This document shows, piece after piece, positions 1 through 33,881 of a stretch of 64,000 nt of DNA. Each line of letters starts with the position of its first letter. Within the stretch, counting starts at the first letter, position 1. Under the pieces are notes generated by a model. The model had not been told where the DNA came from. It did not search any database and saw only the letters and a program-made list of their open reading frames with translations. The stretch is from Syntrophus sp. (in: bacteria) (GTDB taxonomy: Bacteria > Desulfobacterota > Syntrophia > Syntrophales > UBA8958): the NCBI GenBank assembly GCA_025355725.1, contig JANXZC010000182.1, positions 33,885 to 97,884 of the forward strand, in the 5' to 3' direction. Both the position numbers and the translations under genes were made by a program.

Positions 1-1220
1 ACAAGGAAGGCCTTTGCGGTCCCTACCATCAAAGTGAAAGATTATCACTCTATCGGACCCATCTGGAAAGGCTGATCGCCGCTGAACTTGTCTATCCCTG
101 CTATTGCACGGACGAAGAGTTGGAGGCGGAACGACTGGCCCTTATTTCCCGAAAGATGATGCCTCGCTACATGGGAAAGTGCCGCAATCTGACTGCCGAA
201 GCCCGCAGCAGATTGGAGGCGGAAGGCCGGCCGGCTGCCTATCGTTTCCATGTGCCCCCGGGGGCGATTACCTTTCCTGATCTGATCAGGGGCCCCATGC
301 GTTTTGAGGGCAGCGCCCTCGGAGATTTCATTATTGTCCGTTCCAACGGCATTCCGGCCTACAATTTTGCCGTGGTTATCGATGATCATCTCATGAAAAT
401 CACCCATGTGATCCGGGGGGAAGATCATCTTTCCAACACCGCCCTGCAGCTTCTTCTCTATCAGGCCCTCGGCTTTGCACCCCCACAATTCGCCCACCAC
501 GCCCTGATCCTGGGGTGGGACCGATCGAAGCTCAGCAAGCGGCATGGATCTACAACGGTCCGGGAGTTTCGTGAGCAGGGGATACTTCCTCAGGCGTTAA
601 TCAACTATCTCGCCCTCTTAGGCGCCTCATTCGGAGAAGGCAAGGAGGTCTGTTCGATTGCTGAAATTGTCGGGAGCTTCTCCCTCGACCGGGCAGGTAA
701 AAGCGGCGCCATTTTCGATAAAGACAAGTTGTTCTGGCTCAACAGTCTGTATATCAGGAAGGAATCGCTGACAACGCTAACCGGTTATATGCAGCCCTTC
801 ATCAAGGAGGCCGGTTATGCCCACCTTGATGAGGCTCATCTCCACCGGATTCTGGATGCCGTCCGGGATAATATCACCAGTCTGGCGGAAATCGGAACTT
901 ATCTGCGAATTTTTGACGACAGCGCCTATGAACTCTCTGCCGGGGCGCTACAGATTCTTGCCGACGACGAAACAAGGAAGGTTGTTTTGAGCCTCCTTGA
1001 TCTCCTCAATAACACTGACGCGGAAGGCGATGAGCTTTATGGAACCCTGATGCCTCTTCTGCCCGGGAAAACGGGCTTGCGGGGCAAGAAGCTCTTCATG
1101 CCCCTGCGCGCCGCTATCACCGGCCAGACAAAAGGGCCTGAGTTGGACCGATTCTTCTCAATCCTGGGCAAATCCTCCCTGCAATACCGCCTCCAAAAGG
1201 CCATTGCCGCCACAACCTGA
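1..1220 (+). CDS. gltX: Glutamate--tRNA ligase, 5' end cut by window edge
   Basis: The frame stays open back to the window edge (codons from nt 3 read KEGLCGPYHQSERLSLY...YPCYCTDEELE). The tracked ORF continues with NFAVVIDDHLMKITHVIRGEDHLSNT and KLSKRHG, which are class-I GluRS core motifs. Confidence 0.9.
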   Translation, partial: KEGLCGPYHQSERLSLYRTHLERLIAAELVYPCYCTDEELEAERLALISRKMMPRYMGKCRNLTAEARSRLEAEGRPAAYRFHVPPGAITFPDLIRGPMRFEGSALGDFIIVRSNGIPAYNFAVVIDDHLMKITHVIRGEDHLSNTALQLLLYQALGFAPPQFAHHALILGWDRSKLSKRHGSTTVREFREQGILPQALINYLALLGASFGEGKEVCSIAEIVGSFSLDRAGKSGAIFDKDKLFWLNSLYIRKESLTTLTGYMQPFIKEAGYAHLDEAHLHRILDAVRDNITSLAEIGTYLRIFDDSAYELSAGALQILADDETRKVVLSLLDLLNNTDAEGDELYGTLMPLLPGKTGLRGKKLFMPLRAAITGQTKGPELDRFFSILGKSSLQYRLQKAIAATT

Positions 1221-1273
1221 AACAACATCCATCTACTTGGCAGTGGTTGTATGTCCGGGTCAGTTACGGGGCT

Positions 1274-1951
1274 CTAAGCAAGTTTGCCGTCGATTAGCAG
1301 CTTCCGCTGGATTTCAAGAATTTTTCTCATCAGATGCCGTTCATAATCCCGACTGTTGCCTATGAATGCTGCCCCCACATAGTGCAGATCCGGATCATGA
1401 GCAATAGGCGCCGTCACCCTCAACACCTTTATCGGCAGCTCTAAAAAATACTCGTCGATAATCAGAGCAATTTTAAACTCCTCATGCATTTCCGGCAAAT
1501 CATCGCCCCGATAGCTAAACTGGAAACCACCTACAGAGAGGTCGATGATATTGAGCCTTCGCCCTTTCCACTCGATAGTGAGATTGCTATCGGCGGGGGG
1601 GCGAACCCGAAAATCAAGCCTCAGGTTGTAGGTGTCCAACCTGGTCTGCTGTTCAAGACCCACGGCCACGACCTCTGAGGAAGACAGCTTGTAGTCGGTG
1701 ATGAAATCAGTTACCTTGGCTTGTACTCCGTAACGAACAGGTTGCCCATCTTTTCTTATTAGAAAGGTGAGGGATATTTCCCGGTTCAAGTTATGCTTGG
1801 TCAGGGGGGGGGAGGCTTGGGCAATGATGATCCGGCGGTCGATTACATCATAGATCAGGGATTTCATATGCCTGCTCCGATCAACGATATCGACGGATAT
1901 CCCCGGCCTGATCGGTGTCTTGCTTTGTTCCATAGAATATTCGCGCTCCAA
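1274..1951 (-). CDS. PilZ domain protein (YcgR-like, putative c-di-GMP receptor)
   Basis: The C-terminal half carries RLDFR (RxxxR) followed by IIDLSVGGFQF (DxSxxG), the PilZ signature. The start could be M1 or M7. Confidence 0.75.
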   Translation of the reverse strand: MEREYSMEQSKTPIRPGISVDIVDRSRHMKSLIYDVIDRRIIIAQASPPLTKHNLNREISLTFLIRKDGQPVRYGVQAKVTDFITDYKLSSSEVVAVGLEQQTRLDTYNLRLDFRVRPPADSNLTIEWKGRRLNIIDLSVGGFQFSYRGDDLPEMHEEFKIALIIDEYFLELPIKVLRVTAPIAHDPDLHYVGAAFIGNSRDYERHLMRKILEIQRKLLIDGKLA

Positions 1952-2137
1952 TTATCCCGAAAGTTTCTATCGCCTGCTTGTGCAGGTGGCATGTGGGAGA
2001 TGAAAAGAAATCTTAACCATGATTCCCCCGCCGCAAATATAGAGACAAGCGATGCCACCCGTCAAGGGAAAGTTTTCTTATAATCAATCCTTTTGACTCA
2101 TTTTCCGTAATCGGAAACGGTTGTGGGTGGATATATG

Positions 2138-2263
2138 ATTCCAATTCCAAACCAAAGATGAAATCAAGGCGGCAAGGCAGCGGCGACGGAGGCGTATTGT
2201 TCATACGTCGAGGAGCCGATGACGATGCCAACGAAGATAGCGCTTTGATTAAGGATTGGAATA
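2138..2263 (-). repeat. Copy 1 of the ~125-bp palindromic intergenic element
   Basis: Aligns by eye over its whole length with 6643-6767, 30218-30341 and 33757-33881. Terminal arms are attccaattccaaaccaaag / ctttgattaaggattggaat. It lies between the divergent PilZ and ABC-F genes. Confidence 0.85.
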
Positions 2264-2323
2264 ACTTGTCAGGGGCCGCTAATCATTGTATATGAACAAC
2301 CATTTTACTGGGAGCAACAGCAC

Positions 2324-4336
2324 TTGATCTATCTGAAAAATATCAGTCTGGCATTTGGCGACCGTACCCTGTTTGAGAACTGGACCTGGCCAATCACGGC
2401 TAGGAGCCGGATTGGCCTGGTGGGAGACAACGGCGCCGGGAAGACTACCCTATTGAAGGCAATCCTCGGCATGGTGGAGTTGGACGGGGGTACGATCGAT
2501 ATCCTGGACCGGAAAAACAGGACCATCGCCTATCTTCCCCAGGATCTCGTGGAAATCGAGCCTGTTCCCCTCATGGAATATCTGAAAAACCGTTGCGGCC
2601 TGACCGCTTTGGAAACCGGGATGCGCAATTGCGAGAAACAGGTGGCCGCGCTGCCGGCCCATCCCCCGGAAGGTGAAGGAGAAGAGGAAGGGTTATCCGA
2701 GAACGGAGCAAGACGCGAAAAGATCCTCCGGGAATATGACCGGATGGTCGCCCTCTATCAGGCCAAAGAAGGCTATGCCTTCGAGGCGAGGGCCAAACAG
2801 GTTCTCAAGGGGTTCGGATTCGGGGAGCAGGATTTTCTCAAGCAGTGCGACGAGTTTTCCGGAGGTTGGAAGATGCGCATCCTCCTGGCCGTCATCCTCC
2901 TGTCCCAGCCCGACATCATGCTCCTCGATGAACCAACGAATCACCTCGATACGGAAAGCATGGAGTGGCTGGAAAGCTATTTAAAAGACTATCCGGGGAT
3001 GCTGATTACCGTTGCCCACGATCGCTTCTTCCTGGACAAGATGGCGACAACCATAGCGGAAATCTCCCAGGGTCGTTTGGCTCTGTACAAGGGCAACTAC
3101 TCCTATTATCTCGTGGAGAAGGAAAAACGCCTGGCGGCCCTGGAAAAAGAACGGCTCCTCCAGCAGGGGGAGATCAAAAAAACCGAGGAATTCATCGAAC
3201 GGTTTCGCTTCAAGGCCACCAAAGCCAAACAGGTTCAGAGCCGGATCCGGATGCTCGAAAAATTTGCCCCCCTCCAGGCCGAAGGACATGGTAAAACGGT
3301 CAAGATCCGTTTCCCCGCCGGGCCGAAAAGCGGGAAAGAGATTCTCTTTGTCAGTAAACTTGCCAAATCTTACGGAACCCAGGAGATTTTCAGGGAGGTC
3401 AGCTTCTCCCTCCAGCGGGGAGAGCGGGTAGCACTGGTCGGTGTCAACGGATCGGGTAAATCGACGCTGTCACGGATTCTTGGCCAGGTGGAGGCGCCTT
3501 CGGCAGGGGAAATCCGCTCCGGTCTCAATGTGCACATGGCCTTTTTTTCCCAGGAAAGCGCGGAAAATCTTCGTTATGAACGGACGGTCTGGGAAGAAAC
3601 GATGGAGGTTGCCTCCCGGAGCAATGACCGGGAAAGACGGAACCTTCTCGGGGCCTTTCTTTTTTCCGGCGATGACATCCACAAGCCCGTCTCCGTCCTC
3701 TCGGGAGGGGAAAAGTCGCGGCTGGCCCTGCTGAAGATCCTGCTCCAGGAGACAAACCTCCTGATCCTCGACGAACCCACCAATCACCTGGATTTCAAAA
3801 CCAAGGATATCTTCCAGAATGCCTTGCTGTCCTACCAGGGAACCGTCGTCCTCGTATCCCATGACCGTTATTTCCTTGACCACTTAGTCAATCGCGTCTT
3901 TGAACTTAGGGACGGCGAATGTATCGAATATCCGGGCAATTATTCCTATTTTATCGAGAAGCGGCAATCATTGGCGGAGGAGAGAAGGGCCGCAGCAGTG
4001 CAGAACGGAAGCCCACCGGATACCCCGACGGCGGAGGGGAAAAGCGCCTATAAGACCAGGGAAGAAAAGCGCCGGGAGGCGGAAGAGCGCCAGCGCCTGG
4101 CCAGGATCAATCAGGGACTGAAAAAAGAGCTTCACGCCATAGAAAAGGGCATCGCCGCCCTGGAAGGCAGGAAGGCAGCGGGCGAATCGTTTCTCTGCGA
4201 TCCCCTCAGCCACCGGGAACCGGAGAGAATCAAGCAAACCCACCGGGACCTCAAAGATCTGGAGAAAGAAATCGAACAGTCGTACGACCGTTGGCATGAG
4301 CTGACGATGGCCATGGAAGATAATATATTATCTTGA
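2324..4336 (+). CDS. ABC-F family ATPase (two ABC cassettes, no TM domain; Uup/EttA/YheS-like)
   Basis: Two Walker A sites (GDNGAGKTT, GVNGSGKST), two LSGGxK signatures and two LLLDEPTNHLD Walker B motifs. There is a charged linker and a coiled-coil C-terminus. The start is TTG. Confidence 0.85.
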   Translation: MIYLKNISLAFGDRTLFENWTWPITARSRIGLVGDNGAGKTTLLKAILGMVELDGGTIDILDRKNRTIAYLPQDLVEIEPVPLMEYLKNRCGLTALETGMRNCEKQVAALPAHPPEGEGEEEGLSENGARREKILREYDRMVALYQAKEGYAFEARAKQVLKGFGFGEQDFLKQCDEFSGGWKMRILLAVILLSQPDIMLLDEPTNHLDTESMEWLESYLKDYPGMLITVAHDRFFLDKMATTIAEISQGRLALYKGNYSYYLVEKEKRLAALEKERLLQQGEIKKTEEFIERFRFKATKAKQVQSRIRMLEKFAPLQAEGHGKTVKIRFPAGPKSGKEILFVSKLAKSYGTQEIFREVSFSLQRGERVALVGVNGSGKSTLSRILGQVEAPSAGEIRSGLNVHMAFFSQESAENLRYERTVWEETMEVASRSNDRERRNLLGAFLFSGDDIHKPVSVLSGGEKSRLALLKILLQETNLLILDEPTNHLDFKTKDIFQNALLSYQGTVVLVSHDRYFLDHLVNRVFELRDGECIEYPGNYSYFIEKRQSLAEERRAAAVQNGSPPDTPTAEGKSAYKTREEKRREAEERQRLARINQGLKKELHAIEKGIAALEGRKAAGESFLCDPLSHREPERIKQTHRDLKDLEKEIEQSYDRWHELTMAMEDNILS

Positions 4337-4381
4337 CATCAATCTGATTTTGTATTTTGCTCGGGTCAAGAGGAGGAAATC

Positions 4382-5200
4382 ATGCCGGATCATGGTGAGG
4401 ACCGCGAAAATCTGAATATTTCCATACCTCGGCCGCTGGCCGGAGATCTTCTTCACGTTGCCCGGCAATCAGGCCACTCCGTTTCCCACCTCACCGAAAA
4501 AGCCCTGGCTCAGTACCTGAAAGATGAACGGGGCACAAATTCGGTCTATCTCTCCGCGCCGGTCAATGCCATGCTGAAAGGTTTTTACGAAGAAAACACT
4601 ACCCTTGGGGATCTGAGGACGCATGGTGATTTTGGCTTGGGCACCTTCAATAACCTGGACGGGGAAATGGTTATGCTCGACGGCGTCATCTATCAATTGC
4701 ACGCTGACGGAAAAACCTATCCCGTGGCTGATCATGTGCAGACCCCCTTTGCCTGTGTGACCTTCTATAGACCCTCCATTGTGGAAGAAATAGAGGGGAG
4801 TCTCGATTTCAACGCCTTCAATGCCATTCTAAATCGCCTGCTGCCCTCAGATAACATGCTCTATGCGATTCGTGTCGACGGCCTATTCAAACAAGTGAAG
4901 GTCTGGTCCGTCTCCAGGCAGGATAATTATCAACCCCTTGTCGAAGATGAAAAAAACCGTCCCGTATTTGAATACGAGAATATCAACGGCGTTTTGGCCG
5001 GTTTTTATACACCAAAATTTATTCGCGCCCTTAATTTCCCCGGATTTCATCTGCATTTTCTCACGGAAGATCGCAAGTACGGCGGTCATCTCTACGAATG
5101 TCAGACCGATAGCGTGCAAATCGGTATACAGTTCATCCACCGGCTCAAACTAGATCTTCCCATAACCATTGATTATCTAACGGCAAACTTGCCGCGGTAA
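4382..5200 (+). CDS. budA: Alpha-acetolactate decarboxylase with ~50-aa N-terminal ribbon-helix-helix-like extension
   Basis: GDFGLGTFNNLDGEMVMLDG...YQL and GFYTP...LNFPGFHLHFLTEDRKYGGH match ALDC family blocks. The RBS gaggagg lies 5 nt upstream. Confidence 0.8.
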   Translation: MPDHGEDRENLNISIPRPLAGDLLHVARQSGHSVSHLTEKALAQYLKDERGTNSVYLSAPVNAMLKGFYEENTTLGDLRTHGDFGLGTFNNLDGEMVMLDGVIYQLHADGKTYPVADHVQTPFACVTFYRPSIVEEIEGSLDFNAFNAILNRLLPSDNMLYAIRVDGLFKQVKVWSVSRQDNYQPLVEDEKNRPVFEYENINGVLAGFYTPKFIRALNFPGFHLHFLTEDRKYGGHLYECQTDSVQIGIQFIHRLKLDLPITIDYLTANLPR

Positions 5201-6631: not shown

Positions 6632-6642
6632 CGGGGTCACTT

Positions 6643-6767
6643 ATTCCGCTTCTAGATCAAAGATGATATCAAGACGGCAAGGAAGAGGCGACGCAGGCGT
6701 ATTGTTGATACGTCGAGGAGCCGATGATGATGCCAACGAAGATAGCGCTTTGATTCAGTAGAGGAAT
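6643..6767 (-). repeat. Copy 2 of the ~125-bp palindromic intergenic element
   Basis: The core is near-identical to the other copies. On the minus strand it reads TAA|TTCCTCTACTGAATCAAAG, directly continuing from the rubrerythrin-like stop codon (6767-6769). It lies 12 nt after the pyk stop on the plus strand. Confidence 0.85.
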
Positions 6768-7285
6768 TATGCCCCGTCGAGACCCGACCTTTCCGCCTTC
6801 CGATACCAGGAGGCCGGATCCTTCATGTATTCTTCAGTATCTTTGAGGGAAACGTAATGTTCATGTTCAATGTTGGCCAATAGCTCAAAAAAAGCCTTTT
6901 CCTTGGGATCTGTAACGTTGTCACGGAGCCGGGCATAATAGGTCGCCCCCTGACCCTCGAAATCAATTGCCTCCTCCAGGGCCTTCAGGTCATCGGCGTC
7001 CCCCGCCGGGGCGTTGGCCACCTTCTTAATGACATCCTTCAGGACATCTTTAACAATGGTTTCTTTGACCTTCAGGGGGACCGTATCGGGCCACTTCTTG
7101 TCTTTGGCCCAGTTTTCGTGAAGCTGTTTGAGCCGTTCGTAATGTTCCAGTTCATCTGCGGCGATCTGCTGGAACATGGCCTTGCCGACGGGATTTTTTG
7201 TCCGCTCCGCGTTCTTCAGGTAAAACTCATGCTCTCTCATTTCATTATTCAGGGCAACATCCAGGGCGTTCAAACGATCTTTCAT
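6767..7285 (-). CDS. Rubrerythrin/ferritin-like di-iron protein (no rubredoxin domain)
   Basis: Two E...ExxH pairs (EMREHE...ADELEHY and EGQGATYY...NIEHEHY) are typical of four-helix di-iron carboxylate proteins. Confidence 0.7.
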   Translation of the reverse strand: MKDRLNALDVALNNEMREHEFYLKNAERTKNPVGKAMFQQIAADELEHYERLKQLHENWAKDKKWPDTVPLKVKETIVKDVLKDVIKKVANAPAGDADDLKALEEAIDFEGQGATYYARLRDNVTDPKEKAFFELLANIEHEHYVSLKDTEEYMKDPASWYRKAERSGLDGA

Positions 7286-11772: not shown

Positions 11773-12630
11773 ATGGTTTCCCCAAGAACCTCCGGCCTTT
11801 GTCCCAATTGCCGCAAGCTGATCAGTCTTGATGAACCGGCATGCCCCTATTGCGGCATCGCCAACCCGGGATCACGCTGGCGCATGTCTTTCCTGAGCCG
11901 CTGGACAGGCGGCAATCTCGATCTCGTCCGGCTGATCATTTACGCTAATGTCGCCTTCTACCTCCTGTCCATCCTCATCAATCCCTCCGGAATGGGCGTC
12001 ACCATGAACCCCCTAACGCTCTTTTCCCCATCAGAGAGCAGCCTGTTTCTCCTGGGGGCCACGGGAACCCTGCCGATTGCCCAGTTTCATCGCTGGTGGA
12101 CCCTGGTTACCGCCTCCTTTCTCCACGGCGGTCTTCTCCATATCTTCTTCAACATGATGGCCCTCAATCAATTGGGACCCTTTGTCGTTGCCGAATTCGG
12201 TGTTCATCGTTTCGCCGTCATCTACACCGTGACGGGCGTTGCCGGTTTTCTCCTTTCCTATTTCGCGGGGATTACCTTCACCATTGGCGCCTCGGCGAGC
12301 ATCTGCGGCCTCATCGGAGCCATTCTCTACTTTGCCAAGAGCCGGGGCGGTTTTTATGGGGATGCGATGTACCGTCAGGCCATGGGCTGGGTCGTCGGTC
12401 TCGTCCTCTTCGGGCTCCTCATTCCCGGTATCAACAACTGGGCTCACGGCGGCGGCTTGGTTGCGGGGATTGCATCAGCGTTCATCCTCGGTTACGAGGA
12501 CCGGCACAAGGAAACATCATTTCACCGCATTCTGGGGAATGTCTGCATCTTCGGAACCGCCGGCCTGCTGATCTGGGCTGCTCTGTCGGCATTTTACCAG
12601 CTTTTTCAATACATGGCATACTTCCGGTAA
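11773..12630 (+). CDS. Rhomboid family intramembrane serine protease with N-terminal zinc-ribbon
   Basis: CPNC...CPYC at the N-terminus. WWTLVTASFLHGGLLHIFFNM, GASASICGLIGA (catalytic Ser) and AHGGGLVAG (catalytic His). The start is 1 nt after the TraB stop. Confidence 0.8.
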   Translation: MVSPRTSGLCPNCRKLISLDEPACPYCGIANPGSRWRMSFLSRWTGGNLDLVRLIIYANVAFYLLSILINPSGMGVTMNPLTLFSPSESSLFLLGATGTLPIAQFHRWWTLVTASFLHGGLLHIFFNMMALNQLGPFVVAEFGVHRFAVIYTVTGVAGFLLSYFAGITFTIGASASICGLIGAILYFAKSRGGFYGDAMYRQAMGWVVGLVLFGLLIPGINNWAHGGGLVAGIASAFILGYEDRHKETSFHRILGNVCIFGTAGLLIWAALSAFYQLFQYMAYFR

Positions 12631-12650
12631 ATCAAATCGCCGATCTGTCC

Positions 12651-12679: not shown

Positions 12680-12884
12680 GTAACCCTAAGAAATATCATA
12701 TGCTAAGGAAGCGGAGCGGTTTGGAAAGCTCAAGGGCAACTTGAGGAACAAATGAAGGAGGAAGTGCGGCTCAATGCCCTGATTTTGGAAAACCTGAAAA
12801 AGGTGAAGCTGGAGTGAGTGTAGTGGCAAGTTCAACTTGAAGTCACAGATTGTGACCTCAAGTTAGGGTGTAAGGTGAAAAGCA

Positions 12885-13862
12885 ATGGTTGAAAATACTA
12901 TCATTAAGAAAGATGACATTCAAAGCCGTATTTTTACCATACGCAATGTCCAGGTCATGCTGGATAGTGACCTTGCTGAACTTTATGGTGTTGAAGTAAA
13001 AAGATTGAATGAACAGGTAAAAAGAAACATTGAAAGATTTCCGCAGGAATTCAGCTTTCAGCTCACCGTCGAAGAAAATAATGCTCTAAGGTCGCAATTT
13101 GCGACCTTAGAGAAAGAAAGCCACTTTAGGTTCCAAATTGGCCCCTCGAAAGATGAGCAAAACTTGAAGTCGCAATTTGCGACTTCAAGTTGGGGTGGAA
13201 AACGAAAAGTGCCCTACGCATTTACCGAGCAAGGCGTGGCCATGCTTTCCGGAGTTCTTAAAAGCAATACGGCTGTTCAAATAAGCATTCAAATCATCAA
13301 TGCATTTGTATCCATGCGGAAATTTATTTCTGCAAATGCGCAGATATTTCATCGTCTCGAAGGCGTTGAAAGAAAACAGATTGAATACAAAGTAGAGACC
13401 GACGAGAAATTCAAGAGGGTCTTCGACGCCATCGAAGAGAAAGACATCAAACCCAAGCAAGGCATTTTTTTCGACGGCCAGATTTTCGATGCCTATCAAT
13501 TTGTTTCCGAGCTGATTCGTACGGCCCGGAAATCGATAATTGTTATTGATAATTATATTGATGATGCGGTTTTAACTTTGCTTTCCAAAGCCAACAAGAA
13601 AGTGCAGATCACCATCCTCACCAAGGCCATTTCCAAACAGCTTGCCCTGGATATAAAAAAATATAACGAGCAATATCCTGCCATCACATTAAAGGAATTC
13701 TATCATTCTCACGACAGGTTTTTAATCATTGACGGCAAAACAGTTTATCATTTCGGCGCATCCTTAAAGGATCTGGGTAAAAAATGGTTCGCCTTTTCCA
13801 AGTTTGATAAAAACGCATTTAAGCTGCTGGAGAGACTGGCAGGGGTTGTCAGTGAACAGTAA
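12885..13862 (+). CDS. ORF6N (KilA-N-like) DNA-binding domain protein with conserved C-terminal HxR..D / GAS module
   Basis: The N-terminus IRNVQVMLDSDLAELYGVEVKRLNEQVKRNIERFP...FSFQLT...SQFATSSWGGKRKVPYAFTEQGVAMLS is the ORF6N signature. The C-terminus has IIVIDNYID and HDRFLIIDGKTVYHFGASLKDLGKK. The gene is AT-rich relative to its neighbours. Confidence 0.75.
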   Translation: MVENTIIKKDDIQSRIFTIRNVQVMLDSDLAELYGVEVKRLNEQVKRNIERFPQEFSFQLTVEENNALRSQFATLEKESHFRFQIGPSKDEQNLKSQFATSSWGGKRKVPYAFTEQGVAMLSGVLKSNTAVQISIQIINAFVSMRKFISANAQIFHRLEGVERKQIEYKVETDEKFKRVFDAIEEKDIKPKQGIFFDGQIFDAYQFVSELIRTARKSIIVIDNYIDDAVLTLLSKANKKVQITILTKAISKQLALDIKKYNEQYPAITLKEFYHSHDRFLIIDGKTVYHFGASLKDLGKKWFAFSKFDKNAFKLLERLAGVVSEQ

Positions 13863-15682: not shown

Positions 15683-15717
15683 CGCGCATCGTCCCTTGCC
15701 GTTTTCCTGTAAATATA

Positions 15718-18833: not shown

Positions 18834-18849
18834 GAAAAATACTGATCAT

Positions 18850-18932
18850 CTTTCCGCCACTCCCTACGCTGGCATTACCCAGGTCAGGTTCAAAGGGTAT
18901 CTTCTCAGCCTTATCGGCGCCCCTGTCAACTA
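18850..18932 (-). ncRNA. TPP (THI-box) riboswitch
   Basis: The minus strand reads CAGGGGCGCCGATAAGGCTGAGAAGATACCCTTTGAACCTGACCTGGGTAATGCCAGCGTAGGGAGTGG. This contains the conserved GGGG, CTGAGA, ACCC, GAACCTGA, TAATGCCAGCGTAGGGA blocks. Confidence 0.9.
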
Positions 18933-19015
18933 TTTACGGACACGACTACACCAGCCCCGGCCGCAAAAGGTGATGTGCGATCCTACGAATCTATTTTTGG
19001 AAAAGCAAGGATTTT

Positions 19016-29482: not shown

Positions 29483-30217
29483 GTGTTGAAGGACGTGCTA
29501 CGGGATTTGGCTGATGTACTGTTTCCTCCCCGTTGCCAATCCTGCCGGACGGTTGCAGAAAAACTGGCCAACGATCTTTTCTGCCCGGTCTGCGAAGAAA
29601 AGATTCGATACATTCGCACCCCTCTCTGCCCGGCCTGCGGGACCCCCTTTCCCGATGCCGAAGGATCGAACCATCTGTGCGGAGATTGTCTGATGGCCCC
29701 CAAACCTTTCGCCGTCGCCCGATCCGTCGCCGCCTTCGACGGCATTCTGCTTGAGGCTATCCATGCTTTCAAATACAAAAACAAAACCGGGATGGCAACA
29801 GGCCTGGGAAGGATGATAACTGGTGATTCCTATGCCGGCATGGACATGCGGGGCTACACGATGATCATGCCGGTTCCGCTCCACATCCGGCGCCTGCGGG
29901 AACGGGGATTCAACCAGTCCCTGCTCCTGGCAAAAATACTTTCCCCAAGGTATGCCATCCCCCTTGATTTTGTTACTCTGAAGCGCGAAAGAGACACGCC
30001 GCCCCAGACGACGATGGGACGCAAAGAGCGTCAGGCCAATATCAAAGGGGCCTTCGGCGTTGCCGATAAAGAAAGGGTCAGAAAGCAGCATGTTTTATTG
30101 ATTGATGACGTTTACACGACGGGAAGTACCCTCGCCGAGTGCACCCGGGTGTTGTTGAATAGCGGCGCGGCCCGGGTCGGCGTTTTAACCCTGGCCCGGG
30201 CGGTAAAGGATGCTTAG
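29483..30217 (+). CDS. comF: ComF family protein (phosphoribosyltransferase-like)
   Basis: N-terminal double CxxC (PPRCQSC...CPVC...CPAC...CGDC), RERGFNQS, and the PRTase motif VLLIDDVYTTGST. The GTG/TTG start lies just after the rsfS stop, and the tracked 29306 start overlaps rsfS. Confidence 0.8.
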   Translation: MLKDVLRDLADVLFPPRCQSCRTVAEKLANDLFCPVCEEKIRYIRTPLCPACGTPFPDAEGSNHLCGDCLMAPKPFAVARSVAAFDGILLEAIHAFKYKNKTGMATGLGRMITGDSYAGMDMRGYTMIMPVPLHIRRLRERGFNQSLLLAKILSPRYAIPLDFVTLKRERDTPPQTTMGRKERQANIKGAFGVADKERVRKQHVLLIDDVYTTGSTLAECTRVLLNSGAARVGVLTLARAVKDA

Positions 30218-30341
30218 TTCCCATTCTAAATCAAAGCGCTATCTTCGTTGGCTTCGTCATCGGCTCCCCGACGTATTTCCATATACGCCTCCGTCGCCTC
30301 TTCCTTGCCGCCTTGATTTCATCTTTGATATAGAATGGGAA
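30218..30341 (+). repeat. Copy 3 of the ~125-bp palindromic intergenic element
   Basis: It starts at the nucleotide after the comF TAG stop (TAG|TTCCCATTCTAAATCAAAG). The arms TTCCCATTCTAAATCAAAG / CTTTGATATAGAATGGGAA are complementary at 18 of 19 positions. Confidence 0.85.
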
Positions 30342-30372
30342 AATAAGTCCGCTTATGTGATGGGGGTAAAAA

Positions 30373-31548: not shown

Positions 31549-33756
31549 ATGTTTGTAAAGGTTGCCATCCCTATCCCCAAAGATCAATCCTTTGATTATA
31601 TCGTCCCCACGGAGATGGAGAAGAATGTCGCTATTGGCAAACGGGTGCTTGTCCCTTTTGGCAACAAGCGGGAGACAGGATGTATCGTCGGGATAACAAC
31701 CGCTACGGACATTGAAAATCCCAAAGAGATCATTGAGATCCTGGATCAGGAGCCGCTCTTTGACGACCGTGATCTCGCCTTTTACAGTTGGACGGCTGAT
31801 TATTATCTCTATCCTCTGGGAAAGGTCCTCGGAGAAATCCTGCCCGGGGTAAAGGACCGCCGCACCAGAACGGAAAAGATCGCCGCCGCCAGTTGCAACG
31901 CATCGTCAACCACTGAAAAATTAACGGTAAAACAACGTCTCGTCCTTAAAATCCTTCAGGAGGAGGCCGAAGTATCCGTTGCCGTCCTCTGTCAAAGGTT
32001 GGGAAACGTCCGTTCTACCCTTGCTGCCCTCGAAAAAAAAGGACTCGCCTGTATCACGGAAAAGGGCGTATTCCGCTCTTTTCCGCCCTTTCTCACCGTC
32101 GGGGAACCTTCAGGAAGACCGACCGCTAATTCCTCTCAAGAAGCGGTCTTAAAGGAACTCCACTGTAACCTCCAGTCCGGTCAATTCAGCACCTTTCTTC
32201 TCCACGGCGTAACCGGGAGCGGTAAAACCGAAGTCTATTTCCAGGCTATGGAGGAGGTCCGTCGCCGCCAGGGAGGGATTATCTATCTCGTTCCGGAAAT
32301 TGCCCTGACCCCCCAGCTCCTCACGCGTCTCAAAGAAAGATTCGGGGATGAAAACATTGCCGTCCTCCACAGCGGCGTCTCCCGCGCCATCCGTTATGAA
32401 CAGTGGCAGCGCCTGCGACGAGGCGAAATGCACATGGCTGTGGGGGTGCGCTCTGCCCTCTTTGCGCCGGTCCGGGATCTGAAGTTGATCATTGTCGATG
32501 AGGAACACGACGCTTCTTATAAGCAGGATGACCGGCTGCCATACAGTGCCCGGGATTTGGCGATTGTTAAAGGCCGTCTGCACGGGGCAACGGTTGTCCT
32601 GGGATCGGCGACGCCGGCGGTACAAACCTGTTTCAATGCCCGGAACGGGAAATTCTCCTGCCTGACCATGCCTGGCCGGATCGCCGACAGACCCCTGCCT
32701 CGCGTTGAAATTGTCGATATGAAAATGGAAAAGGCCCTTCAAGGCAAGAATACCTTTACTATCTTTTCCCGGCGCCTCACCGCCGCCATTCGGGAAACCC
32801 TGGACAGGAAGCAGCAGGTCATGCTCCTCCTCAACCGGCGCGGCTATCACACTTTCCAGATCTGCCGGGACTGTGGCCATCCCCTGAAGTGCCGGAATTG
32901 CGAAGTTTCCCTGATTCAACATGCCCAGGAGGGGGTCTGGAAATGCCACTACTGTGATTATACCCTTGCGGGAGGATTGGTTTGTTCCCGGTGCAGCAGC
33001 GCAAATATCGGCGCTTACGGTATGGGAACTGAGCTGTTGGAGGAAGAGATAACAAACCGTTTCCCCGCTGCCCGGATCAGGCGCATGGACAGCGACACCA
33101 TGGACCGGAAAGGGGCTCACGAGCAATTGCTCAACGCCCTCGGTCAGGACCGGATCGATATTCTCGTGGGGACCCAGATGATTTCCAAGGGACATGACTT
33201 TCCAAATGTCACCCTCGTAGGTGTGATCCTGGCGGATACGTCCCTTAGCCTTCCAGATTTCCGCGCTGCGGAGCGAACCTTCCAGCTCCTGACCCAGGTT
33301 TCCGGCCGGGGGGGGCGGGGTGATTTCCCGGGAAAGGTGATCATTCAAACCTTCAATCCCAATCACTATGCCATCCAGAAGGCCAAAGACCATGACTACG
33401 ACGGCTTCTACGAAGAAGAAATCTCCCTGCGTGAATCCTTGTTCTACCCCCCCTTTTCACGACTGATTCATCTGCGCTTGTCGTGCATCCATCAGGCCAA
33501 GGGGGAGGAGGGAATCAACAGGCTCGCGGAAAAGGCACGGGAGCTTCTCAAGCTGGCCAGGGTGAGGGGAAAAGTGGAAATCGTCGGGCCTGCGGAAGCC
33601 CCCCTGTTCCGGCTGCGGGGCCGTTATCGCTGGCAACTGCTCCTGAAAGGGGATGACAGCCGTTTTCTCCACGCCCTGACCCGGGATATCCTGTCGGGCT
33701 TTCACGCCCCGGGTGTGCAGGTCAAGGTAGACGTCGATCCCGTCCACTTCATGTAA
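31549..33756 (+). CDS. priA: Primosomal replication protein N' (PriA helicase)
   Basis: Walker A GVTGSGKTEVY, DEEHD, Cys-rich zinc fingers (CRDCGHPLKCRNC...CHYC...CSRC), and the helicase C-terminal motifs. Confidence 0.95.
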   Translation: MFVKVAIPIPKDQSFDYIVPTEMEKNVAIGKRVLVPFGNKRETGCIVGITTATDIENPKEIIEILDQEPLFDDRDLAFYSWTADYYLYPLGKVLGEILPGVKDRRTRTEKIAAASCNASSTTEKLTVKQRLVLKILQEEAEVSVAVLCQRLGNVRSTLAALEKKGLACITEKGVFRSFPPFLTVGEPSGRPTANSSQEAVLKELHCNLQSGQFSTFLLHGVTGSGKTEVYFQAMEEVRRRQGGIIYLVPEIALTPQLLTRLKERFGDENIAVLHSGVSRAIRYEQWQRLRRGEMHMAVGVRSALFAPVRDLKLIIVDEEHDASYKQDDRLPYSARDLAIVKGRLHGATVVLGSATPAVQTCFNARNGKFSCLTMPGRIADRPLPRVEIVDMKMEKALQGKNTFTIFSRRLTAAIRETLDRKQQVMLLLNRRGYHTFQICRDCGHPLKCRNCEVSLIQHAQEGVWKCHYCDYTLAGGLVCSRCSSANIGAYGMGTELLEEEITNRFPAARIRRMDSDTMDRKGAHEQLLNALGQDRIDILVGTQMISKGHDFPNVTLVGVILADTSLSLPDFRAAERTFQLLTQVSGRGGRGDFPGKVIIQTFNPNHYAIQKAKDHDYDGFYEEEISLRESLFYPPFSRLIHLRLSCIHQAKGEEGINRLAEKARELLKLARVRGKVEIVGPAEAPLFRLRGRYRWQLLLKGDDSRFLHALTRDILSGFHAPGVQVKVDVDPVHFM

Positions 33757-33881
33757 TTCCGGTTCTAAATCAAAGCGCTATCTGCGTTGGCATCGGCAAT
33801 CGGCTCCTCGACGTATGAAAAATACGCCTCCGTCGCCTCTGCCTTGCCGCCTTGATTTCATCTTTGATTTAGAACCAGAAT
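33757..33881 (+). repeat. Copy 4 of the ~125-bp palindromic intergenic element
   Basis: It starts immediately after the priA TAA (TAA|TTCCGGTTCTAAATCAAAG). The arms ATTCCGGTTCTAAATCAAAG / CTTTGATTTAGAACCAGAAT are complementary at 19 of 20 positions. Confidence 0.85.

Follow-up and report, generated by a model that had tools for sequence, protein, structure and literature searches.

Tourist-type MITEs (miniature transposable elements with inverted repeats) of the PIF/Harbinger-IS5 superfamily (PHIS) duplicate a 3-bp target, TWA or TNA, and the extended target of NuwaII is C|TNA|G (PMC4482050). Among bacterial repeats, the transcripts of the Correia/NEMIS elements of Neisseria and of the ERIC/IRU elements of enterobacteria fold into long stem-loops, and the NEMIS hairpins are substrates of RNase III (PMC2229807). 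Chunjie, a MITE found in Geobacter uraniireducens, measures 178–235 bp, has 21-bp terminal repeats and 9-bp direct repeats, and is predicted to have a very stable RNA fold (PMC3184786). We have analyzed a repeat present in four copies in a stretch of 64,000 nucleotides from Syntrophus sp. (contig JANXZC010000182.1, positions 33,885 to 97,884; this whole stretch is called the window, and coordinates refer to it). An earlier reading of this DNA from its letters alone (the sequence-only reading) had reported that the element abuts the stop codons of the priA, comF and rubrerythrin genes and that its outer arms co-vary between copies. The element represents a previously undescribed, widespread family of MITEs of Desulfobacterota with a TWA duplication. 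As a whole, we hold with considerable confidence to the account developed below, i.e., a TWA-targeting MITE whose contact with stop codons is mostly driven by the target, whose hairpin is maintained and whose orientation at stop codons is probably selected.

The element and its family

We have collected the family by two scans, and all family counts given here are among the matches listed in them, at least 232 loci in total. The exact 24-mer of the left end was compared with one genome per species and gave at least 112 loci from roughly 30 assemblies; a 24-mer of the right end was compared with metagenome contigs and gave at least 120. When clustered by flanking sequence, the loci correspond to at least 168 distinct insertion sites, 70 of them new in the second sample. 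The hosts in the first scan were Syntrophales (including metagenome-assembled genomes, MAGs, of Syntrophus and Smithella), Geobacter and other Geobacterales, with the isolate Pelotalea chapellei DSM 13688 among them, Desulfuromonadaceae, Desulfosalsimonadaceae and Syntrophorhabdaceae, plus one MAG labelled Nitrospinota.

The usual length of the element is 122–125 bp, with variants from about 75 to 240 bp, and its terminal inverted repeats are 19 bp long (TTCCNNTTCYAAATCAAAG). Small open reading frames (ORFs) are displaced by indels between subfamilies, so that no ORF is conserved. We are therefore dealing with a short non-coding sequence with inverted repeats, a fixed 3-bp duplication, at least 168 insertion sites and three pairs of filled and empty sites, which is what characterizes a MITE. 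The element found no match in Rfam even at E ≤ 1 and none in a plasmid collection, and its core strings were absent both from the multicopy sequence lists in those Geobacter genome-paper supplements that we searched and from the wider literature searched.

There is some variation in architecture within the family. Copies of about 75 nt without the central hairpin were seen at L031, L041, L053 and L094, and copies of 150–240 nt with internal inserts at L005, L014, L015, L016, L025, L029, L033, L100 and L110, some of these inserts having in common a GGCCCTTCGACT…GCTCAG module. The copy at L045:6181-6419 carries in its arm a nested insert of about 85 nt that is another small palindromic repeat with G/C runs.

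Target-site duplication and empty sites

In the 107 copies for which both ends were available, the left and right flanks were identical at the three bases immediately outside the ends in 78%, 74% and 73% of the cases, against 16–32% at the neighboring offsets and a background of about 28%. The matched duplications (n = 57) were TAA in 27 cases, TTA in 23, TCA and TGA in three each and TGG in one. That is, 50 of the 57 were TAA/TTA and six TGA/TCA, the kind of duplication that defines the PHIS superfamily. Since TAA was found opposite TTA in only two of the 107 copies, the middle base is a genuine duplication and does not belong to the element. The independent metagenome sample repeated the pattern (TAA 23, TTA 18), and the bases beside the triplet showed a weak palindromic preference, T-S|TWA|S-A. 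These 3-bp flanking repeats, mostly TAA or TTA, lead us to classify the element as a MITE with a TWA target-site duplication. As a side observation, by impression over the 168 sites, TTA (in the orientation of the element) was somewhat commoner than TAA among insertions off stop codons, with the opposite trend at stops.

The comparison with close relatives provided sites with and without the element. Contigs of a Syntrophales MAG share about 94% identity with the window. At the rubrerythrin gene end, the relative lacking the element (L103) reads GTGC-TTA-TGCCCCGTCG, and the window has the same flanks with TTA-element-TTA in between. We found also the reciprocal case, a copy in L045 located next to TCA-GTAGTCATCG, where the window has a bare TCA (15704–15717) that, read on the minus strand, is a gene's TGA stop codon. 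Finally, the empty site of priA was found in L113, from the LacPavin MAG, whose PriA protein is 93% identical. There the sequence is ...catgTAA-CAAAAG and in the window catgTAA-element-TAA-CACAAAG. In all three filled/empty comparisons the stop codon predates the insertion and is simply duplicated. Thus, the native stop codon stands alone at the orthologous empty sites and is independent of the element.

More distant relatives (L114 and L115) retain after the priA TAA only about 10 nt of the arm (TGCCGGTTCT or TTCCACTTCT), and downstream of this remnant they have a vapBC toxin-antitoxin pair (L114:6209-6930 and L115:6209-6930). The presence of the arm remnant together with vapBC indicates that the priA site was hit or remodelled more than once.

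Frequency of insertions at stop codons

Taking as gene ends those of ORFs open for at least 100 codons, the duplication fell on a stop codon in 56 of 148 independent insertions (38%), the remaining 62% being elsewhere, and 11 of 74 classified sites were located between divergent genes. With 38% of the family in this situation, finding three of the four copies of the window at stop codons is unremarkable. As a reference we used a null model in which the insertion is chosen at random among the candidate triplets of its own intergenic interval, counting also the stop codons at the borders. With uniform weights for TWA, 22.9 of 108 sites were expected on a stop codon and 42 were observed. With a position-weight model derived from non-stop insertions only, the expectation was 29.1 ± 3.1 of 115 sites (a share of about 25%) and the observed number 47, a 1.6-fold excess with a z of about 5.7. 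An earlier run of the null model on the first sample was in agreement.

Target preference and confinement to non-coding DNA account for roughly 60% of the stop contacts, and the residual 1.6-fold excess may reflect selection for harmless positions or the crudeness of the gene calls. A preference for stop-proximal targets had been one of the options left by the sequence-only reading, and the TWA/TNA duplication and the empty sites bear it out. In a minority of sites, 16 from each side, long ORFs run into the element and end inside it, and in these the element itself supplies the stop codon.

Orientation of the copies located at stop codons

In insertions whose duplication coincides with the stop codon, the gene runs into the AATCAAAGCGCT end of the element in 45 cases and into the other end in 11 (p = 5e-6). 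The corresponding numbers were 24 and 8 in the first sample and 23 and 4 in the second. For genes ending within 60 nt of the element but not at the duplication, the numbers were 16 and 15, and the difference between both situations was significant (Fisher's test, p = 0.007). A convergent gene end was present at 150 nt or less on the other side in 31 of the 45 cases with the majority orientation and in two of the 11 with the minority one. Base composition of the flanks can be ruled out as what sets the orientation, there being no G+C asymmetry at insertions away from stops.

The strand complementary to the one that reads AATCAAAGCGCT first is the G-rich strand. Because genes mostly read into the AATCAAAGCGCT end, the mRNA right after the stop codon usually carries the weaker, C-rich hairpin. 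The bias could come about because a very stable helix is selected against when it lies under a ribosome that is terminating, because cleavage by RNase III would leave an unprotected stop codon, or because of re-initiation at the AUG located 19 nt downstream in the G-rich orientation.

Co-variation and strand asymmetry of the hairpin

We have aligned 85 copies and examined the pairing along the element. In the outer stem of 19 bp, 89.9% of the cells were paired and ten pairs had changed on both sides. The changes were found mainly at arm positions 5 (AU 42, GC 21, CG 2), 6 (AU 37, UA 10, GC 5, CG 2) and 10 (CG 48, UA 32). None of 500 shuffles reached the observed co-variation score, and the scores collapsed when the partner was slid by 1–3 columns. 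Over the 168 sites, the mutual information between arms was 0.44–0.81 bits, against about 0.03 by chance. Co-variation of the outer arms, proposed from a few copies, is therefore real at positions 5, 6 and 10. We considered also that the variable bases of the arms were copied from the target DNA, which is ruled out, as they have no mutual information with the flanks.

The switches are not restricted to the arms. Interior pairs change as well (44-93, UA 37, AU 35 and GC 6; 64-73, CG 45 and UA 38; 61-76, GC 77 and AU 6), and within a single genome, arm types reappear combined with different interior subtypes. Maintenance of the stem along its whole length is well supported. The sequence-only reading had argued that, the terminal repeats of classical MITEs being conserved, co-variation points to a selected stem, either an RNA 3'-end structure or a DNA cruciform. 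As an argument for function this was overstated, for a correction from arm to arm, or a hairpin needed for transposition, would explain the co-variation equally well.

Both strands of the element differ in their folding. Folded as RNA, the G-rich strand is the more stable one in 84 of 84 copies (mean -48.2 vs. -34.3 kcal/mol), and the non-Watson-Crick pairs of the consensus hairpin on this strand were 220 G·U and 24 A·C. In the outer stem, wobble states present in at least 5% of the copies were found only at positions 5, 6 and 9 (168 sites), and these common states were systematically of the G·T type when read on the G-rich strand, with ratios of 36:0, 21:1 and 75:4, respectively. The rare wobble states were symmetric between strands (43 vs. 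31). The variants that spread keep the G-rich strand foldable.

Possible mechanism

We favor the following scenario. A transposase acting in trans would make a 3-nt staggered cut at T-W-A, with an extended target of roughly T-S|TWA|S-A. The TWA duplication alone suggests an IS5 or PIF/Harbinger-like DDE enzyme as the mobilizer. The triplet is duplicated upon insertion, and the left copy of a TAA or TGA remains as the stop codon, leaving the reading frame intact. Insertions inside genes are lost, and TWA triplets are scarce in these genomes outside intergenic DNA, so that a large part of the targets that can be tolerated are stop codons. Paired positions would change together because the whole element, and not just its arms, is kept self-complementary. 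In the likeliest reading, the single-stranded hairpin of the G-rich strand would matter for the propagation or persistence of the element, either as DNA or as RNA. Selection against a very stable hairpin abutting the terminating ribosome would probably have left the copies at stop codons oriented in such a way that the mRNA has the weaker C-rich hairpin.

A stronger proposal is that the hairpin of the G-rich strand is the working part of the element and not a by-product of its palindromic ends, and to this we give little credence. It could take two forms. In one, a snap-back of single-stranded DNA would be required by the transposase that makes the 3-bp staggered cut, a combination that to our knowledge is undescribed. 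In the other, an RNA hairpin would act on the termination of translation and impose the 4:1 orientation rule at stop codons. The RNA form fits the folding energies better, since with DNA parameters the asymmetry is small.

Several considerations weigh against the account as a whole or parts of it. The about 230 listed loci (roughly 1.5 Mb) yielded no autonomous element whose ends match, and for this reason we can only infer the transposase family and the mobilization step. Pairs of ends separated by 300–4000 bp were only chance or MITE-MITE pairs, left-end-only matches were truncated copies beside ordinary genes, and the right-end-only matches of the metagenome scan were contig edges or truncations. 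In L066 and L106 one and the same gene (…GCGAAAGTCCGC TGA) has copies of different subfamilies at its stop codon, with unrelated right flanks, and L027 carries a truncated one there. Apparently orthologous sites may thus in some cases be recurrent insertions or rearrangements. The copies are related by descent, so that the counts of co-varying pairs are not counts of events, and relatedness inflates such tests. The common wobble variants are limited to a handful of positions, three of them in the outer stem and another two in the interior, and with DNA energy parameters the difference between strands is only about 3 kcal/mol, which weakens the version of the hairpin as single-stranded DNA. Besides, the gene ends were taken from ORFs of at least 100 codons and not from a gene finder, most of the sequences collected are MAG contigs, and the counts are those among the matches listed.

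Alternative explanations

The alternative that survives best is that co-variation is neutral. The palindrome would extrude as a hairpin or cruciform and the correction of mismatches would copy changes from one arm to the other, with no selection for structure. It has in its favor that complementarity extends along the whole length, including positions without an obvious role, and that many copies are partly mismatched, with the rare mismatches symmetric between strands. Alone, this process leaves the common wobbles of one strand and the orientation bias at stop codons unexplained, and we regard it as an unlikely explanation of the whole pattern.

Co-variation could also appear with no hairpin involved if both ends are bound by the same transposase and the subfamilies track transposase variants of differing specificity. 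A dimeric DDE transposase requires identical ends, and the arm types AA, GT, GA, GG and CA are indeed recurrent classes, each with several interior types. Against this, pairs of the interior, 40–60 nt away from the ends, co-vary too, several arm types are found within one genome, and the mismatched intermediates are strand-biased (the 36:0 and 21:1 above), something that a protein reading double-stranded DNA would not produce. We find this explanation rather improbable.

The sequence-only reading had offered as another option an RNA structure terminating or stabilizing transcripts at their 3' ends. In its full form, this would be an RNA element selected by the host, the contact with the stop codon being part of the function. 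The stable hairpin with compensatory pair changes, the 38% of copies at stop codons with a non-random orientation, and the G·U asymmetry, which is the kind of trace left by selection on RNA, would all fit. The rest of the evidence points in the opposite direction. Neither a terminator-like site nor a U-tract was found around copies 3 and 4. An intrinsic terminator has a G+C-rich stem and a U-run, and in this element A/T-rich sequence forms the base of the stem, with the TWA duplication coming next. Of the insertions, 62% are off stop codons and 11 of 74 classified sites are between divergent genes, presence or absence varies between genomes that are about 94% identical, and at stop sites the mRNA usually has the strand that folds less well. 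The target duplications and the truncated and nested copies are typical of a mobile element. The reading as a terminator or stabilizer is thus not supported, and we deem it very improbable. In the same line, there was no promoter or sigma-70-like site in the element, and no plausible -35/-10 pair was apparent by eye across abutted element ends.

It is barely conceivable that the element is of the REP/REPIN-like or IS200/IS605 type and that an HUH enzyme (RAYT/TnpA) recognizing its hairpin moves it as single-stranded DNA, for although the hairpin is strand-specific, with G·T tolerated on one strand only, and no DDE partner was found, those families, with their short REP hairpins and associated HUH enzyme, make no target duplication, and here we have clear 3-bp duplications with matching middle bases, long terminal inverted repeats and no RAYT-like gene adjoining any copy examined.

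The copies in the window and their surroundings

The four copies are listed in Table 1. The string AATCAAAGCGCT occurs exactly four times in the window, each within one copy of the repeat, and the mean column identity of the four-copy alignment is 86%, a figure that takes in some flanking sequence. Each copy is a long imperfect palindrome that starts with TTCC and ends with GGAA, with fold z-scores of -2.5 to -8.6 relative to shuffled sequence.

Table 1. Copies of the element in the window, their target-site duplications and the stop codons in contact with them.
Feature	Position	Strand	Observations
Copy 1, intergenic, with a PilZ gene and an ABC-F gene diverging from it	2139-2261	-	Flanks TGA and TAA on the + strand
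Second target-site duplication of copy 2, TTA	6641-6643	-
Copy 2, between the convergent pyruvate kinase and rubrerythrin genes	6644-6766	-
Target-site duplication of copy 2, TTA on the + strand	6767-6769	-	Rubrerythrin stop codon, TAA, when read on the minus strand
Probable remnant of a fifth copy, its decayed left end, TTCCGGTAAATCAAATCGCCGATCTG	12622-12650	+	Weak evidence
TAG stop codon of the ComF-like gene	30215-30217	+	At the left target-duplication position of copy 3
Copy 3, directly 3' of the ComF-like gene	30218-30341	+
Left target-site duplication of copy 4, TAA	33754-33756	+	Native priA stop codon; the ORF ends here; empty site in L113
Copy 4 (focal)	33757-33880	+	124-bp imperfect palindrome TTCCGGTTCTAAATCAAAG … CTTTGATTTAGAACCAGAA; 18/19 outer pairs
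Right target-site duplication of copy 4, TAA	33881-33883	+

The contact with the stop codons of the priA, comF and rubrerythrin genes is exact by ORF coordinates, and the identity of the three genes was confirmed by Pfam. The stop codon had been placed in, or directly against, the terminal arm. It directly adjoins the element, as stated, but it does not belong to the arm, being the 3-bp target-site duplication outside TTCC. The PriA_C domain extends to residue 731 of 735, so the priA stop must be the natural end of the protein. In copy 3 the duplication has decayed. Its right flank is AAT, with a TAA two bases beyond (30344–30346), and in one relative comF ends with TGA-TAA. Copy 1 touches no stop codon. 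The complementarity of the arms within each copy turned out to be only approximate, since copies 3 and 4 have 18 of the 19 outer pairs and copies 1 and 2 have 15, and copy 4 has a C·A mismatch inside the very stretch that had been quoted as complementary.

The candidate fifth copy overlaps the end of a rhomboid gene (11773–12630), whose last codons and stop (TAC TTC CGG TAA) fall inside the remnant. At the same place (around 4366–4402), L045 has TAC|TTCCGTTGAAGGAA|TAC, in which direct repeats enclose 14 nt left over from an arm, and this remnant includes the TGA of the gene. Here the element may have supplied the rhomboid stop codon.

We considered the 1.3-kb segment 12626–13928 as an insertion sequence, and it was ruled out as it encodes an ORF6N plus PLD-like protein (12885–13862) and not a transposase. 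This segment, whose left edge is the candidate fifth copy, is absent from the orthologous contig (L045:4366-4402), contains two 32-nt palindromes (12833–12864 and 13161–13192) and looks like a variable insert, possibly related to defense. The only match of the window above the Rfam gathering threshold was a TPP riboswitch (18844–18934, minus strand, 65.4 bits), unrelated to the element. In the LacPavin MAG, the contigs L012 and L024 (corresponding to window positions 2–3415) break exactly at the orthologue of copy 1, with the repeat on each of them, indicating that the element fragments short-read assemblies.

Implications

For annotation, the element is abundant in Syntrophales and Geobacterales, breaks assemblies and lends itself to misannotation as regulatory RNA or terminator. 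In more general terms, a simple TWA target rule makes a transposon look as if it were aware of genes, and landing on a stop codon that is regenerated is a nearly harmless mode of insertion. Both the stop-specific bias in orientation and the wobble rule of one strand bear on the behavior of hairpins at translation termination and on the propagation of palindromic MITEs. If the hairpin were a working part, the family would serve as a natural reporter of the effect on gene expression of stable structures located immediately after a stop codon. The presence in a cultured isolate, P. chapellei DSM 13688, makes experiments feasible.

Comparison with known systems

The attC sites of integrons are imperfect palindromes located just after the ORFs of the cassettes, in which the functional hairpin is formed by only one of the strands and conservation affects structure more than sequence. 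They make no target duplication, are not dispersed singly, and have R and L box motifs, an integrase as partner and widely varying sequences, whereas the interior of our element is more than 85% conserved. Chunjie is a MITE of the same bacterial group with a very stable fold as well, but identity with it is ruled out by the size and by the duplication of 9 bp instead of 3 bp. The Correia/NEMIS and ERIC/IRU elements are also bacterial intergenic MITEs of about 100–160 bp. However, they have TA termini and duplicate TA, where this element duplicates TWA, and there is no sequence shared. For neither of them did we find in the literature searched a landing at stop codons or an orientation bias specific to them.

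With regard to PHIS, the element differs in being bacterial and in that its whole length is one long hairpin, and no cognate transposase was found among the listed loci. IS5-type elements have G-rich ends, and the termini here begin with TTCC instead. It resembles the superfamily in the 3-bp TWA duplication, the terminal inverted repeats and in being short, non-coding and multi-copy, and the S|TWA|S preference at its insertion sites recalls the C|TNA|G of NuwaII.

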